From a virus (lineage: Duplodnaviria; Heunggongvirae; Uroviricota; Caudoviricetes): 32,229 nucleotides of DNA. The stretch lies in IMG/VR virus record IMGVR_UViG_2529292920_000016, one strand, 5' to 3'. Below are positions 18,007 through 30,350 of the stretch, piece after piece (position 1 is the stretch's first letter; each line of letters opens with the position of its first letter). Under the pieces are notes generated by a model. It had not been told where the DNA came from. It saw nothing but the letters and a program-made list of their open reading frames with translations, and did not search any database. The position numbers and the translations under genes were made by a program.

Positions 18007-19056
18007 ATGATTAATACTGTAAAAATATCCAGTTGTGAGTTAATCAACGCTGATTGCCTGGAATTTATCTAGACCTTACCGGAAAACTCTGTCGATCTGA
18101 TAGTCACAGACCCGCCATACTTTAAAGTGAAGCCCGAGGGCTGGGATAACCAGTGGGAGGGCGACGATGATTACCTGAAATGGCTGGACCAGTGTCTGGC
18201 GCAGTTCTGGCGGGTACTGAAGCCTGCCGGAAGTCTTTACCTGTTCTGTGGTCATCGCCTGGCATCTGACACCGAAATCATGATGCGTGAGCGCTTTAAT
18301 GTGCTGAACCACATTATCTGGGCGAAGCCGTCCGGACGCTGGAACGGGTGCAATAAGGAAAGTCTGCGGGCGTATTTTCCGGCAACAGAGCGCATTCTGT
18401 TTGCAGAACATTATCAGGGACCGTATCGCCCGAAAGATGATGGCTATGTGGCACAGGGGCGCGAGCTAAAACAGCACGTCATGGCCCCGCTGATTTCTTA
18501 CTTTCGTGATGCGCGTAAATCACTGGGAATAACGTCAAAACAGATAGCGGAAGCCACCGGAAAGAAAAACATGGCTTCGCACTGGTTTGGTACCAGTCAG
18601 TGGCAGTTACCGAACGAGGGTAATTACAACAAATTGCAGGCGTTGTTTGCGCGTGTTGCGGCAGAAAAACATCAGCGCGGGGAACTGGAAAAGCCACACC
18701 ACCAGCTGGTCAGCACATACAGTGAGCTGAACCGGCAGTATACGGAACTGCTGAGTGAATATAAAAATTTGCGGCGGTATTTCGGTGTGACGGCGCAGGT
18801 TCCGTACACCGATGTCTGGACGCATAAACCGGTGCAGTACTATCCAGGGAAACATCCGTGCGAAAAACCGGCAGAAATGCTGCAGCAGATAATCAACGCG
18901 AGCAGTCGTCCGGGAGACCTGGTTGCAGATTTTTTTATGGGTTCAGGTTCAACGGTAAAAGCGGCGATGGCACTGGGGCGTTGTGCGATTGGTGTTGAGC
19001 TGGAGACAGGACGTTTTGAACAGACAGTCAGGGAAGTTCAGGATTTAATCGTTTGA
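18007..19056 (+). pseudogene. Dam-like N6-adenine DNA methyltransferase interrupted by an in-frame amber (TAG) codon
   Basis: From ATG 18007: MINTVKISSCELINADCLEFI-TAG(18070-18072)-TLPENSVDLIVTDPPYFKVKPEGWDN..., continuing in frame to 19056. DPPY catalytic motif and C-terminal FFMGSGST AdoMet-binding motif are present. ORF track only reports 18127..19056, which starts after DPPY. Confidence 0.7.
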
Positions 19057-19105
19057 AACGGATGGGATTGCAGAATTAATTACGCACCATTATTATTCTG
19101 CTACC

Positions 19106-19181
19106 GGCCCTTTAGCTCAGTGGTGAGAGCGAGCGACTCATAATCGCCAGGTCGCTGGTTCAAATCCAGCAAGGGCCACCA
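19106..19181 (+). tRNA. tRNA-Ile (anticodon CAT; ileX/ileZ-like lysidine tRNA) or tRNA-Met
   Basis: Cloverleaf: acceptor GGCCCTT/AAGGGCC, D arm GCTC...GAGC, anticodon loop CTCATAA, T arm GCTGG-TTCAAAT-CCAGC, 3' CCA encoded. Closely resembles E. coli ileX. Confidence 0.85.
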
Positions 19182-19278
19182 TCACATACCGCCATTAGCT
19201 CATCGGCAGAGAGCGTCAGCTTTCGAAACTGGCTGTGTGGGGCCCGGGTCCCCGATGGCAATCCATTATCTGCATTAT

Positions 19279-19355
19279 GCGTTGTTAGCTCAGCCGGACA
19301 GAGCAATTGCCTTCTAAGCAATCGGTCACTGGTTCGAATCCAGTACAACGCGCCA
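19279..19355 (+). tRNA. tRNA-Arg (anticodon TCT)
   Basis: Acceptor GCGTTGT/ACAACGC, D arm GCTC...GAGC, anticodon stem ATTGC/GCAAT with loop CTTCTAA, T arm CTGG-TTCGAAT-CCAG, 3' CCA encoded. Confidence 0.85.
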
Positions 19356-19540
19356 TATTCATTCTTCCAGATTTCTTCCGGCAGAGCCTTATACTGGAAT
19401 ATACTTGGCTCAGGATATTGTTGAAAATATTATATGTTTGTCAAAAATAAAAGTTCTGTTAAGTATTGATTGAGTGTTTGTTATACGGTCTAATGGTTTT
19501 TTCAGTATTAAATATTTATCATTCATATGGTGTGGGTAGA

Positions 19541-19819: not shown

Positions 19820-20196
19820 ATACATATCTGGATTATCACCTGTTACGGTAAAAAGTGATTGCTTACTGTTTTTGTGAATGGCATTGCAGCAGCCGGATAA
19901 TGTCAGTGCTGGCTGACTGTGTACTGGTGGCGGGTGTGGTGGTTGTTGCTTTCCCGTTGCTGAAAAAGAAAACGCCAGACTGTTAGTCGGAGAAATTTTT
20001 AAATACTTCACAATTCAGGCGGTTGACTGTTGTCTGGTTTGCGGGGAGTTTGTTAAAAGAAACTGGCATGGTGAATCCACCTGTGCGGAGGGGCAATCAG
20101 CGAGTAGGTATATGGGATAATCGCGGATTCAGGTGCTGGTACTGAATTCACCGGGAGGCACCCGGCACCATGCAATGGCACATAGCGCCACTCTCC

Positions 20197-20230
20197 AGCC
20201 CCTCTCCGGAGGGGCTGTTTATATTGATTT
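20197..20230 (+). terminator. Rho-independent terminator
   Basis: AGCCCCTC-TCCG-GAGGGGCT hairpin followed by GTTTATATTGATTTT. Confidence 0.5.
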
Positions 20231-20251: not shown

Positions 20252-20587
20252 TTATGGACTTTGTTGTTTTAGTCCATAAGGACATATTTGCAGAGTGCAA
20301 CGGTTATTAAAGCATTCATTCAATACGTTATCTGTATTTGTAGGGCATTCCTGGCTGTTTTTGATTAAATTCCAGAATGTTTTATTGAATGGTACTACGT
20401 TGTAAATGGTTACAGGTAGCACTTTGTTATTGAGCATGATACCTGTGTGAGTCAGTGTAAATATACTTTCAGGAGGTAAGAAAGCATCCGATTGATACCA
20501 GATTATTAATTTTATTTTACTCCATATGACTGAAAAAGATATTCCGCATGATGGCTGGATAACTGTATCAATCACAATCCACTTCAT
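20252..20587 (-). CDS. Hypothetical AT-rich ORF (111 aa), opposite strand in cargo slot
   Basis: ORF in AT-rich DNA between the terminator and the nanS-p-like gene; Cys-containing C-terminus; could be spurious. Confidence 0.25.
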
Positions 20588-22652: not shown

Positions 22653-22944
22653 TAAAAAAGCCAGCGCCCACTCTGAAGGACGCTGGCTAAAACGGGTAGA
22701 TGTACTTCACATGATACTTATACTTGGCAGTACATTTTCTGACAGACAGTGACGGATGTTGTCAAGATATTGTGTCATTTATAACCTGAATCAGGGGTTG
22801 GCCGGAATGTTATCTGGCATTTTTAGCAGAGCCTGAATGCCATAATCACGGCTCCCGGCGTTGGCCGTCAGTGGGTGACACTGGCGGCTTTTTTGTTTTT
22901 CTTTACTTTCATTTTCTGTCGGCGGTGACGGAGACATACATCAG

Positions 22945-23151
22945 ATGGAAAAAATCACAACAGGTGTGTCATACACCACGTCAGCGGTGGGGACGGGATA
23001 CTGGTTACTGCAGCTGCTGGACAAAGTCTCTCCGTCCCAGTGGGTGGCAATAGGTGTGCTGGGGAGTCTGCTGTTTGGCCTGCTGACGTATCTGACAAAC
23101 CTTTATTTCAAGATTAAAGAAGATAAGCGCAAGGCTGCGAGAGGTGAATAA
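22945..23151 (+). CDS. S: Holin, class II pinholin (S21-like)
   Basis: 68 aa, [68 protein letters not shown]; two TM segments and charged C-terminus, closely like phage 21 S pinholin. Stop overlaps endolysin start (TAATG). Confidence 0.85.
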
Positions 23152-23648
23152 TGCCTCCATCATTACGAAAAGCCGTTGCTGCTGCTATTGGTGGTGGGGC
23201 TGTTGCCATAGCGTCTGTGCTCATCACTGGTCCGAGTGGTGACGATGGCCTGGAAGGTGTCAGCTACATACCATACGAAGATATCGTTGGCGTATGGACT
23301 GTATGTCACGGACACACCGGAAAAGACATCATGCCCGGTAAAACGTATACCGAAGCAGAATGCAAAGCCCTCCTGAATAAAGACCTTGCCACGGTCGCCA
23401 GACAAATAAACCCGTACATCAACGTCGATATACCGGAAACAACGCGCGGCGCTCTTTACTCGTTCGTTTACAACGTGGGCGCTGGCAATTTCAGAACATC
23501 GACGCTTCTTCGCAAAATAAACCAGGGCGATATCAAAGGCGCATGTGATCAGCTACGGCGCTGGACATACGCTGGCGGTAAGCAATGGAAAGGGCTGATG
23601 ACTCGCCGTGAGATTGAGCGTGAAGTCTGTTTGTGGGGGCAACAATGA
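23151..23648 (+). CDS. R: SAR endolysin (signal-anchor-release lysozyme, GH24)
   Basis: 165 aa; N-terminal weakly hydrophobic Gly/Ala-rich SAR segment ([18 protein letters not shown]) followed by a lysozyme domain; partnered with a pinholin as in phage 21. Confidence 0.85.
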
Positions 23649-24082
23649 GCAGAGTAACCGCGATTATCTACGTTCTGGTCATCTGCCTCATCGTCTGCCT
23701 TTCATGGGCTGTTAATCATTACCGTGATAACGCCATCGCCTACAAAGAGCAGCGCGATAAAGCCACATCCATCATCGCTGATATGCAGAAGCGGCAACGT
23801 GATGTAGCAGAACTTGACGCCAGATACACAAAGGAGCTTGCTGATGCTAATGCGACTATCGAAAGTCTCCGTGCTGATGTTTCTGCTGGGCGTAAGCGCC
23901 TGCAAGTCGCCGCCACCTGTGCAAAGTCAACGACCGGAGCCAGCGGCATGGGCAATGGAGAAACCCCAGGACTTACAGCAGATGCTGAACTCAATTATTA
24001 CCGTCTCCGAAGTGGAATCGACAGGATAACCGCGCAGGTTAACTACTTGCAGGAGTACATTAGGACGCAATGCCTTCGATGA
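23645..24082 (+). CDS. Rz: Spanin inner-membrane subunit Rz
   Basis: ATGA overlap with endolysin stop; N-terminal TM helix then coiled-coil periplasmic domain. Confidence 0.8.
23844..24029 (+). CDS. Rz1: Spanin outer-membrane lipoprotein subunit Rz1 (embedded in Rz, +1 frame)
   Basis: [20 protein letters not shown] lipoprotein signal peptide, then proline-rich [21 protein letters not shown]...; entirely within the Rz gene. Confidence 0.7.
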
Positions 24083-24198
24083 TAGCGATAATTTTCCCAT
24101 TATCTTTTATATGCGTGATTTTAGTTAGTTTTAGTCGCAACACGAATAAAACAGAGAACCACCCGCTATACGAGTGGTTCTGATTTACACTTTTGAAA

Positions 24199-24429
24199 CT
24201 AAAAGCTAAATACTTGAGCAAGAACAGCTAACGCTGCGCAAAAAGCAGCCCGTTTATTCCATTTACTTTGTATTTCAATGGCTTTAAAACAACCCAGTGA
24301 TGAGAAACTGCCTTGTTCCGTTTTTGGTGGGTGTTCTTTGGAAGATGCAAAACATGAAATAATCCAAAAAATGGCGGAAAAAATTCCAAAAATTATTGAA
24401 GGCAAATGATGCTCTTTCAAAAACTCCAT
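24199..24429 (-). CDS. Hypothetical small membrane protein (76 aa)
   Basis: Two hydrophobic stretches; sits between lysis genes and cos on the opposite strand, where lambdoid phages often carry morons. Weak RBS; low confidence. Confidence 0.25.
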   Translation of the reverse strand: MEFLKEHHLPSIIFGIFSAIFWIISCFASSKEHPPKTEQGSFSSLGCFKAIEIQSKWNKRAAFCAALAVLAQVFSF

Positions 24430-25104
24430 GACTTAACTCTCTTAAAAGTTGCTAAACATCGCTCGCAAACAAGAAAGAAAAGTTCTGTTGCGAGCACTCC
24501 ACAATTTAAACGCCACACAAGCAGCTATTAGGTGGACGGTTCCAAGATTGCTATCAACTGCCACCCGAATACCGTCAAAACTTGACGTCCAACCAAGAAT
24601 TATTGAGTTGTAAACTCAACGCAATGATCTGGTTGGTATAAATGTGACATATGTCATGAATCGACTAGTTGAGATAGTCAAGATGGGCTTGCTTGACATC
24701 ATCACCACAACCGGAGCCAACAATGGCAGATTGCGTTACCCAGATTTGATAAAGGCATTTTAGCCTGACATAACTATGCACTGTATCGTCGCCGTATTCC
24801 CGCATCAACAGAGACCACAGCCCGAGAGGGAGACTCCTCTGCGCGAGTGTGCGGGGATAATCAAAAACGATACACACCGGGGTTTACCGTGTTAACGGAG
24901 CGCGGCGTTGTCCCCTCATGGTCGCTGGTCCGGTGCGATGGTGGAAGAAACCGGACGATGTGTTACCTCGCAAACTCTGTTATGTCATGTGTCTGATTTG
25001 TGATTTAAGTCGGATAATTGTCATTGCCATTAAGCAGAGGATTGATGACCGACAGGGCTGCATTGTTAGAATAAGACTTATTCTTATCTATGCCGGGAAT
25101 AAAA

Positions 25105-25431
25105 ATGAAAAGAAATCTTCCGTTAATTATTTTGTTGTCTTCTTTGGTTATGGGCTGTACGCAACATAAAACAGATATGCCTCGACAGTTGGTTAAGGCA
25201 TTACCACAATATCCGGCCTATGCCGCGGCAAATTATATAAAGGGACGGGTTGATGTGAAGTTTGATATTGGTGCTGATGGTACTGTCACCCGAATTGAGT
25301 TTATCCGTTCAGAGCCGCACCATCTGTTTGATGAGCAGGTTGTAAAGGCGATGGCAAAATGGCGATTTGAGAAGGACAAGCCGCGTAAAGGCGTGAAGAA
25401 AACATTTATCTTTAGTCCTTCAGCACCCTGA
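25105..25431 (+). CDS. Lipoprotein with TonB C-terminal-like domain
   Basis: Signal peptide MKRNLPLIILLSSLVMGC with lipobox LVMGC; mature part has the TonB_C-like pattern (YP..A....I.G.V.VKFDIGADGTV..IE.I.S.....FD..V.KA...W.F). Confidence 0.6.
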   Translation: MKRNLPLIILLSSLVMGCTQHKTDMPRQLVKALPQYPAYAAANYIKGRVDVKFDIGADGTVTRIEFIRSEPHHLFDEQVVKAMAKWRFEKDKPRKGVKKTFIFSPSAP

Positions 25432-28571: not shown

Positions 28572-28782
28572 ACTGCAGGCGCTGCGTCAGGCGCGCCTTG
28601 ATTTATTAACCGGTAAACGGGTGGTGTCTGTCCAGAAAGATGGTCGCAGAATTGAATATACGGCGGCTTCTCTGGATGAGCTTAACCGGGCGATCAATGA
28701 TGCGGAGTCGGTACTGGGGACAACCCGGCGTCGCCGTCGTCCGCTGGGAGTGAGGTTTGAAACGAACGCCTGTCCTGATTGA
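28555..28782 (+). CDS. W: Head-tail joining / DNA stabilisation protein (gpW)
   Basis: LLTGKRVVSVQKDGRRIEYTAASLDELNRAIND matches lambda W; GGAGG RBS; overlaps end of A. Confidence 0.8.
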   Translation: MVTVAELQALRQARLDLLTGKRVVSVQKDGRRIEYTAASLDELNRAINDAESVLGTTRRRRRPLGVRFETNACPD

Positions 28783-28802: not shown

Positions 28803-30350
28803 GTGAGAGTCTCAGCTACGAACGGGGGCGGTGCAGGATTTGGCGGGCAAATGGCGGAGTGGTTGCCACCGGCGCAGAGTGCCGATGCGGCCCTGCTGCC
28901 CGCGTTGCGTCTGGGGAATGCCCGGGCAGATGATCTGGTGCGCAATAACGGAATAGCGGCCAATGCGGTGGCCCTGCATAAGGATCACATTGTCGGGCAT
29001 ATGTTTCTTATCAGCTACCGTCCGAACTGGCGCTGGCTGGGGATGCGGGAGACCGCAGCAAAAAGCTTTGTCGATGAGGTGGAGGCGGCCTGGTCGGAAT
29101 ACGCCGAAGGGATGTCTGGCGAGATCGACGTGGAAGGAAAACGCACGTTCACGGAATTTATCCGTGAAGGTGTGGGCGTTCATGCGTTTAACGGCGAAAT
29201 CTTTGTGCAGCCGGTCTGGGATACGGAGAGCACGCAACTGTTTCGTACGCGTTTTAAAGCCGTGAGTCCGAAACGGGTGGACACGCCAGGACACGGTATG
29301 GGGAACCGTTTTCTGCGGGCCGGTGTGGAGGTCGATCGATATGGTCGTGCCGTTGCGTACCATATCTGTGAGGATGATTTTCCGTTCTCCGGGAGTGGAC
29401 GATGGGAACGGATCCCGCGTGAACTTCCCACCGGGCGTCCGGCCATGCTGCATATTTTCGAGCCGGTGGAGGACGGGCAGACCCGTGGGGCCAATCAGTT
29501 TTACAGCGTAATGGAACGGCTGAAGATGCTCGATTCCCTGCAGGCAACACAGCTTCAGTCGGCCATAGTGAAGGCGATGTATGCAGCGACGATTGAAAGT
29601 GACCTTGATACCGAAAAGGCCTTTGAATATATCGCCGGTGCGCCGCAGGGGCAGAAGGATAATCCGCTTATTAATATTCTGGAGAAGTTCTCCAGCTGGT
29701 ATGACACGAATAGCGTGACGCTGGGTGGTGTCAAAATTCCGCACCTTTTCCCCGGTGATGATCTGAAACTTCAGACCGCGCAGGATTCAGACAATGGATT
29801 TTCGGCGCTTGAACAGGCGCTGCTGCGGTATATCGCCGCCGGTCTTGGCGTTTCCTACGAACAGTTGTCCCGTGATTACTCGAAGGTCAGTTATTCAAGT
29901 GCCAGGGCCTCTGCCAATGAGTCGTGGCGCTATTTTATGGGGCGGCGAAAATTTATTGCGGCCCGGCTGGCCACGCAGATGTTTTCCTGCTGGCTGGAAG
30001 AGGCACTTCTTCGGGGGATTATCCGTCCGCCACGGGCGCGTTTTGATTTTTATCAGGCGCGATCAGCCTGGTCACGGGCAGAGTGGATTGGTGCCGGAAG
30101 AATGGCCATTGACGGGCTCAAGGAGGTTCAGGAATCGGTGATGCGCATTGAGGCCGGACTGAGCACGTATGAGAAAGAGCTGGCGCTGATGGGCGAGGAT
30201 TATCAGGACATTTTCCGCCAGCAGGTCAGGGAATCTGCTGAGCGACAAAAAGCCGGACTCTCACGTCCGGTGTGGATAGCGCAGGCGTATGAGCAGCAGA
30301 TAGCGGAGAGTCGCAGGCCGGAAGAGGAGACAACACCCCGTGAGACGTAA
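28803..30350 (+). CDS. B: Portal protein (gpB); N-terminus apparently displaced into another frame by a frameshift
   Basis: High similarity to lambda B from GGGAGFGGQ onward. The first ~24 codons homologous to the lambda B N-terminus (..KRTPVLIDVNGVPLRESLSYERG) lie in a different frame from 28757; the frames meet at a G5 run (28824-28828). Confidence 0.85.
   Translation: MRVSATNGGGAGFGGQMAEWLPPAQSADAALLPALRLGNARADDLVRNNGIAANAVALHKDHIVGHMFLISYRPNWRWLGMRETAAKSFVDEVEAAWSEYAEGMSGEIDVEGKRTFTEFIREGVGVHAFNGEIFVQPVWDTESTQLFRTRFKAVSPKRVDTPGHGMGNRFLRAGVEVDRYGRAVAYHICEDDFPFSGSGRWERIPRELPTGRPAMLHIFEPVEDGQTRGANQFYSVMERLKMLDSLQATQLQSAIVKAMYAATIESDLDTEKAFEYIAGAPQGQKDNPLINILEKFSSWYDTNSVTLGGVKIPHLFPGDDLKLQTAQDSDNGFSALEQALLRYIAAGLGVSYEQLSRDYSKVSYSSARASANESWRYFMGRRKFIAARLATQMFSCWLEEALLRGIIRPPRARFDFYQARSAWSRAEWIGAGRMAIDGLKEVQESVMRIEAGLSTYEKELALMGEDYQDIFRQQVRESAERQKAGLSRPVWIAQAYEQQIAESRRPEEETTPRET

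Follow-up and report, generated by a model that had tools for sequence, protein, structure and literature searches.

An amber codon private to one lineage in the M.EcoGII-type adenine methyltransferase gene of a multiply defective lambdoid prophage

The viral DNA analysed here, a stretch of 32,229 nucleotides referred to below as the window, contains a DNA methyltransferase reading frame at 18007-19056 on the plus strand that is broken near its start by an in-frame TAG. We asked whether this stop is a genuine mutation, which codon it replaced, and whether the gene could still supply an active enzyme. Translation of 18007-19056(+) gave MINTVKISSCELINADCLEFI, then the stop, then TLPENSVDLIVTDPPYF..., with ...ELINADCLEFI standing directly before the stop. 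The results showed a single methyltransferase frame of 349 codons (plus its terminal stop) with one internal stop, the amber TAG at codon 22 (18070-18072, +). The catalytic motif IV, DPPY, lies 3′ of it at codons 35-38 (18109-18120, +). The initial annotation had placed a TAG at codon 22 upstream of DPPY in a frame homologous on both sides of the stop, and both the translation and the homolog alignments agreed with this description. The exact intact 349-aa protein with glutamine at position 22 is recorded on 321 contigs, and together with the continuous 349-codon frame and a match to PF01555 this indicates a real gene rather than a chance ORF.

With Gln placed at position 22, the protein matched PF01555 (N6_N4_Mtase) with an E-value of 2.1e-44 over residues 29-340 and profile positions 1-219 of 221, and this was the only Pfam family found at E<=0.001. 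The motifs follow the beta-class order, DPPY (codons 35-38), then the TRD, then FxGxG; the last, the AdoMet-binding motif I, reads FFMGSGS and occupies codons 309-315 at the C-terminal end (18931-18951, +). The initial annotation had called the enzyme "Dam-like". E. coli Dam and the product of this gene are both of the AdoMet-dependent N6-adenine DNA methyltransferase type with a DPPY-type catalytic motif, but Dam is an alpha-class, GATC-specific enzyme that carries PF02086 and has FxGxG N-terminal and DPPY C-terminal. Membership of the Dam family was ruled out, since PF02086 (MethyltransfD12) was absent and the motif order was reversed. "Dam-like" is therefore imprecise for a protein whose motifs run from DPPY through a central region to FxGxG, whose sole Pfam match is PF01555, and which is about 90% identical to M.EcoGII.

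M.EcoGII, from E. coli O104:H4, is a prophage-borne N6-adenine DNA/RNA methyltransferase without sequence specificity. Its motifs are arranged as DPPY, an HTH-containing TRD and FxGxG, and its family is described as very large among E. coli prophages (PMC5778455). Like the window's enzyme, M.EcoGII and M.EcoGI of strain C227-11 (O104:H4; Murray et al. 2018, PMC5778455) are encoded by prophages, with the same length and about 90% identity. Full-length alignment to M.EcoGII gave 316 identical positions of 350 (~90%), both proteins being 349 aa, where the reference was machine-read from the PDF of Table S1 of PMC11551740 and a few of the mismatches are transcription noise. Of the roughly 10% of residues that differ, many fall in the TRD (residues 145-245), and position 22 is R in M.EcoGII, Q in the clade of the window and amber in the window copy. 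At this level of identity, the intact enzyme would probably methylate adenine non-specifically, in any sequence context. The Rossmann catalytic domain of M.EcoGII was modelled as residues 1-134 plus 260-349 (AF2, PMC11551740). Residues 8-114 and 281-340 of the window's protein aligned to the cores of solved beta-class methyltransferases (PDB 8urk/9c3u "Methyltransferase", M.RsrI 1eg2, CcrM 6pbd and M.MboIIA 1g60) with E-values from 2e-24 to 4e-15, although these enzymes are far more distant, are site-specific and do not have the ~150-residue linker and HTH insert that mark the M.EcoGII family. According to the AF2 domain boundaries and the alignments to solved structures, residues 1-40 are predicted to form part of the catalytic core. 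The family has 3,026 database relatives, and 3,131 of the 5,426 complete E. coli genomes contain matches, with ~8,000 homologous places in all. DPPY was invariant in all 121 aligned family members, and position 22 was variable (A/Q/G/R/P/S). In PHROGs, 18007-19056 matched two families, phrog_6025 and phrog_6952, which separately cover an N-terminal half (1-204) and a C-terminal half (170-349); families of half length suggest that split methylase copies are annotated in some phage genomes.

The consequence of the stop depends on where translation could begin again. A scan for start codons found no ATG, GTG or TTG in codons 23-34, which rules out an alternative canonical start that keeps DPPY. 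The first canonical start past the TAG is GTG 18127, two codons after DPPY, and no Shine-Dalgarno-like sequence was present in the 25 nt 5′ of it. The residual ORF that opens there (18127-19056, +) encodes 309 aa without DPPY and without the N-terminal core, and it is this 309-aa ORF that gene callers annotate in assemblies with the TAG allele. The ORF and motif coordinates thus bear out the earlier remark that a restart at GTG 18127 would lose the catalytic motif. With the stop at codon 22, the locus lacks an uninterrupted frame for the catalytic domain, and with the next canonical start past DPPY the gene is a pseudogene member of the M.EcoGII-type family. Because no canonical start lies between the TAG and DPPY, a DPPY-containing product would be impossible from such starts; judged from the sequence, the allele is almost certainly null and would yield a peptide of 21 residues.

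To identify the ancestral codon, we compared the window with its closest relatives. The lambdoid prophage that makes up the window shares about 99.8% identity with a prophage of EPEC O127:H6 E2348/69 (NC_011601.1, about 1268133-1300361), which carries at the same place an intact ortholog, WP_000611208.1 (E2348C_RS06600), a DNA-methyltransferase of 349 aa. The two prophages agree in position and gene order, and over 17900-19200 the T at 18070, where E2348/69 has C, is their sole difference, with no indel. C at 18070 was also found in near-identical prophages of strains CAU16175 and H10407, indicating that the ancestral codon was CAG (Gln) and that it was changed by a single C→T transition. The stop thus differs by one base, without any indel, from the sense codon of all close relatives. 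These comparisons with E2348/69, CAU16175 and H10407 bear out the initial annotation's view that a nonsense point mutation, and not an indel, is responsible, and supply the ancestral codon that it had proposed to seek among orthologs. A deamination hotspot at a Dcm site was rejected by reading the sequence, since the context ATCCAGACC is not CCWGG. The E2348/69 prophage differs in having CAG and an intact 349-aa ORF, in its intact Q gene (180 aa) and intact small ORF, and in extra ISEc13 and IS200C insertions; the window has neither insertion, indicating that it belongs to a sister lineage and is not E2348/69 itself. The insertion site was compared between window positions 22889-22896 and positions 22943-25206 of the E2348/69 locus (L005). 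An IS481-family insertion at about 13243-14331 is common to both prophages.

We then examined how widely the TAG allele occurs. The exact 309-aa residual ORF is recorded on three contigs, two of them with TAG. The window was 100% identical over 6.9 kb to contig NJJB01000091.1 of NCBI GCA_002464965.1 and over 4.0 kb to the Logan assembly of SRR094159, and both have the same TAG as well as the same Q deletion and ochre codon described below, although these two assemblies may derive from the window's own strain or read set. The reproduction of the T in both argues against a sequencing error, and largely pre-empts the finding of a sense codon at 18070-18072, which the initial annotation had named as what would overturn its claim. 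The third contig (ENA ERZ761549 NODE_159, 1569-2595) has CAG at codon 22 and has lost codons 1-8, which are replaced by unrelated DNA with Glyco_hydro_53 and DEAD-helicase genes upstream; this independent disruption of the methylase gene coincides with a junction due to rearrangement or assembly. With a 55-nt megablast probe that had the T at its centre and could not seed on the C allele, no match was obtained among the 5,426 E. coli genomes, all complete, whereas the C-allele control probe found 564 places in 429 of them. No exact match to the TAG allele was found in IMG/VR, GTDB representative genomes or JGI metagenomes, and none of 79 full-length IMG/VR relatives (>=90% identity) had an internal stop, their codon 22 being CAG in 49 and CGG in 30. 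These three null results rule out a stop that is programmed or conserved. Intact copies of the gene also occur in phiP27, phage 1720a-02 and one Stx2c phage. The TAG allele is real and restricted to one lineage.

The methylase gene is located in the late region of the prophage, 3′ of a Q-like gene and two terminators and 5′ of tRNAs and lysis genes. The order is a Q-like antiterminator gene, a terminator, a 65-codon ORF, a weaker hairpin, the methylase, three tRNA-like genes and the lysis genes. The Q-like gene (DUF1133 / phrog_753; 16806-17294, +) is followed by a strong intrinsic terminator at 17506-17536(+) (-18.2 kcal/mol, z=-5.9), which is symmetrical, with an A-run, a 13-bp stem and a U-run, and which is probably a tR′-like site that Q-modified polymerase must read through. 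Weak, sub-threshold Rfam matches to isrK, AgrB and Trp-leader overlap the same 17506-17536 interval. The 65-codon phrog_331 ORF (17659-17856, +) stands directly 5′ of the methylase in every case seen, namely phiP27, 1720a-02 and E. coli prophages. A second terminator-like hairpin with a T-run at 17843-17870(+) is weak (about -9 kcal/mol, z=-1.1). Promoter prediction on the plus strand gave no sigma-70-like promoter immediately 5′ of the methylase gene, and with two terminators preceding the gene this suggests that the methylase is silent in lysogens anyway. The same module of Q, small ORF, methylase and ileZ/argO tRNAs, followed by toxin or lysis genes, is shared by Stx phages (phiP27 L24; 1720a-02; Stx2a/2c/2d), in which the methylase lies between Q and stx with 82-90% nucleotide identity. 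Phage 1720a-02, named as the carrier of an enzyme very similar to M.EcoGII (PMC5778455), has the same gene order as the window at 88% nucleotide identity. The Stx-phage copies are intact and belong to inducible, toxin-converting phages, whereas the prophage in the window lacks stx and is multiply defective. M.EcoGII itself is silent in the lysogen (PMC5778455). By analogy with the M.EcoGII literature, transcription of an intact methylase would presumably await induction and depend on Q-antiterminated polymerase, and the enzyme would methylate progeny DNA broadly and so evade restriction; such post-induction expression fits the silence of M.EcoGII in lysogens.

Differences between the window and E2348/69 were polarised with the outgroups CAU16175, H10407, AMSHJX01 and Z1322HEC0003. 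The results showed 14 substitutions derived in the window lineage (6 nonsynonymous, 3 synonymous, 2 nonsense and 3 intergenic) and five derived indels. In the Q-like gene, a 2-bp "AC" deletion after 17255 keeps the native sequence up to residue 150 and then adds 12 aberrant residues before a stop, so that the last 30 conserved residues are lost; E2348/69 and the outgroups keep both bases, and the gene is called as 162 aa in the GCA_002464965.1 and SRR094159 assemblies. In the phrog_331 ORF, a derived GAA→TAA change makes codon 9 an ochre stop (17683-17685); a possible restart at GTG 17695 could give a 53-aa product. An HNH endonuclease gene has a -1 frameshift at 12932, in an A-run near its 3′ end. 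At 28757, a -1 change removes the stop of the head-tail-joining gene and turns the portal ATG into TTG, and at 28820 an inserted G (+1) puts the portal gene out of frame beyond about codon 21. The methylase stop is therefore accompanied by disabling lesions specific to this lineage in Q, the small ORF, HNH and portal, and the Q and portal lesions indicate a cryptic prophage. Within 16450-19400, only three changes are derived in the window, and all are knockouts in the consecutive genes Q, small ORF and methylase. Two of the 11 substitutions derived in coding sequence were nonsense, compared with an expectation of 4.8%; this excess was not significant (binomial P~0.09) and was rejected as a sign of selection.

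We also searched the window for tRNAs that might read the amber codon. Three tRNA-like genes follow the methylase on the plus strand: an ileZ-type tRNA with anticodon CAT (19106-19181; tRNA-Ile in relatives), a decayed argN-type pseudogene with anticodon TCG (19189-19262) and an argO-type tRNA-Arg with anticodon TCT (19279-19355), the first and the last detected by both ARAGORN and Rfam. None of them is a suppressor. The argN-type sequence scores 22.2 bits against the Rfam tRNA model, below the gathering score of 29, receives no call from ARAGORN, and differs from the intact argN of strain AMSHJX01 by GG→AA on the 3′ side of the acceptor. No CUA-anticodon suppressor tRNA was found in the window by ARAGORN or Rfam, which rules out one encoded in cis. 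The locus accordingly shows neither the conserved in-frame stop nor the nearby CUA tRNA of a readthrough or suppressor-dependent gene. The initial annotation's expectation that the methylase is probably inactive unless an amber suppressor is present is supported by the tRNA complement of the window. Amber suppressors of the glnV/supE type insert glutamine, and wild E. coli isolates normally lack them. Since the ancestral residue was Gln and position 22 is tolerant, a supE-type suppressor would restore the wild-type methylase; more generally, the variability of position 22 suggests that suppression or basal readthrough of UAG would yield an active enzyme. With Q frameshifted, the methylase would probably not be usefully transcribed even with a suppressor.

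The reading that best accounts for these results, to which we give a probability of about 0.85, is that the methylase is a real CAG→TAG nonsense pseudogene that arose by neutral decay of a defective prophage. A single C→T change converted the CAG (Gln) of codon 22 to TAG; translation would then stop after 21 residues, and any canonical restart would lack DPPY, which would make the allele null. The same lineage also picked up the Q frameshift, the ochre codon of the small ORF and the HNH and portal frameshifts, and the TAG would be one neutral lesion among these in a prophage that no longer completes its lytic cycle. A very different account, that the true base at 18070 is C, the gene is intact and the T arose in sequencing or assembly, is very unlikely. 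It could draw on the small number of contigs with the truncated ORF (only three, of which the two with TAG may represent one strain or read set) and on the several single-base indels of the window, one of them in a homopolymer (12932). However, the change at 18070 is a substitution and not a homopolymer indel, and the NCBI and Logan SRR094159 assemblies reproduce the window exactly over 6.9 kb and 4.0 kb, including its TAG, its ochre codon and its Q deletion. We regard it as extremely improbable that the methylase still functions in attenuated form, whether through an amber suppressor, basal UAG readthrough or non-canonical re-initiation. That position 22 accepts many residues, and that a glnV/supE-type suppressor would give back exactly the ancestral Gln, would make readthrough effective where it occurred; yet the window offers only CAT, TCT and decayed TCG anticodons and no CUA-anticodon tRNA, the stop is kept in no relative, and with Q frameshifted, late transcription is probably lost as well. 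Re-initiation could make use of an in-frame CTG and ATA at positions 31-32, ahead of DPPY, but a start at codon 31 would delete conserved N-terminal core including N-A-D-C-L.

Selection for the knockout would arise if a leaky non-specific adenine methylase, or the whole Q-dependent late module, harmed the host. Constitutive M.EcoGII is deleterious, giving slow-growing and unstable clones (PMC5778455), and the three derived changes in 16450-19400 all disable consecutive genes of the late module. The independent N-terminal truncation in ENA ERZ761549 and the N-half and C-half PHROGs families, suggestive of split copies, can also be cited here. Against this, HNH and portal, which are unrelated to methylase toxicity, have also been disabled, and the excess of nonsense changes does not reach significance (P~0.09). 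Inactivation is also not detectably recurrent, with none of the 79 close relatives disrupted and none of the 5,426 genomes carrying the allele, and behind two terminators and without a predicted promoter the methylase is likely silent in lysogens anyway. We therefore consider a selected knockout unlikely. Its more specific form, in which host selection silenced a leaky module by knocking out Q, the phrog_331 ORF and the methylase together, or, in a weaker variant, left trace enzyme through UAG readthrough, is if anything slightly less likely still. Given the lesions that co-occur in Q, the small ORF, HNH and portal, the stop is best read as one neutral lesion of a decaying prophage.

The feature is an ordinary pseudogene, private to one lineage, of a well-characterised methylase family; it matters little beyond annotation. 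The locus should be annotated as a pseudogene belonging to the M.EcoGII family of non-specific adenine methyltransferases; neither "Dam-like" nor a 309-aa "DNA methylase" is appropriate. In methylome studies, the TAG lineage should lack the induction-dependent non-specific m6A that this prophage would otherwise contribute, whereas E2348/69 keeps the intact gene. Selected inactivation, if true, would be relevant to the tolerance of hosts for prophage enzymes that act genome-wide, and under the host-selection reading a bacterium would have disarmed a toxic anti-restriction enzyme of a phage, one capable of genome-wide, non-specific adenine methylation; the data do not require selection.

A minor observation concerns the sRNA STnc100 (RF02076), which matched 20037-20226 on the plus strand with 123.6 bits (E=6e-28). 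This match adjoins the anti-adapter gene iraM, located at 20252-20587 on the minus strand.
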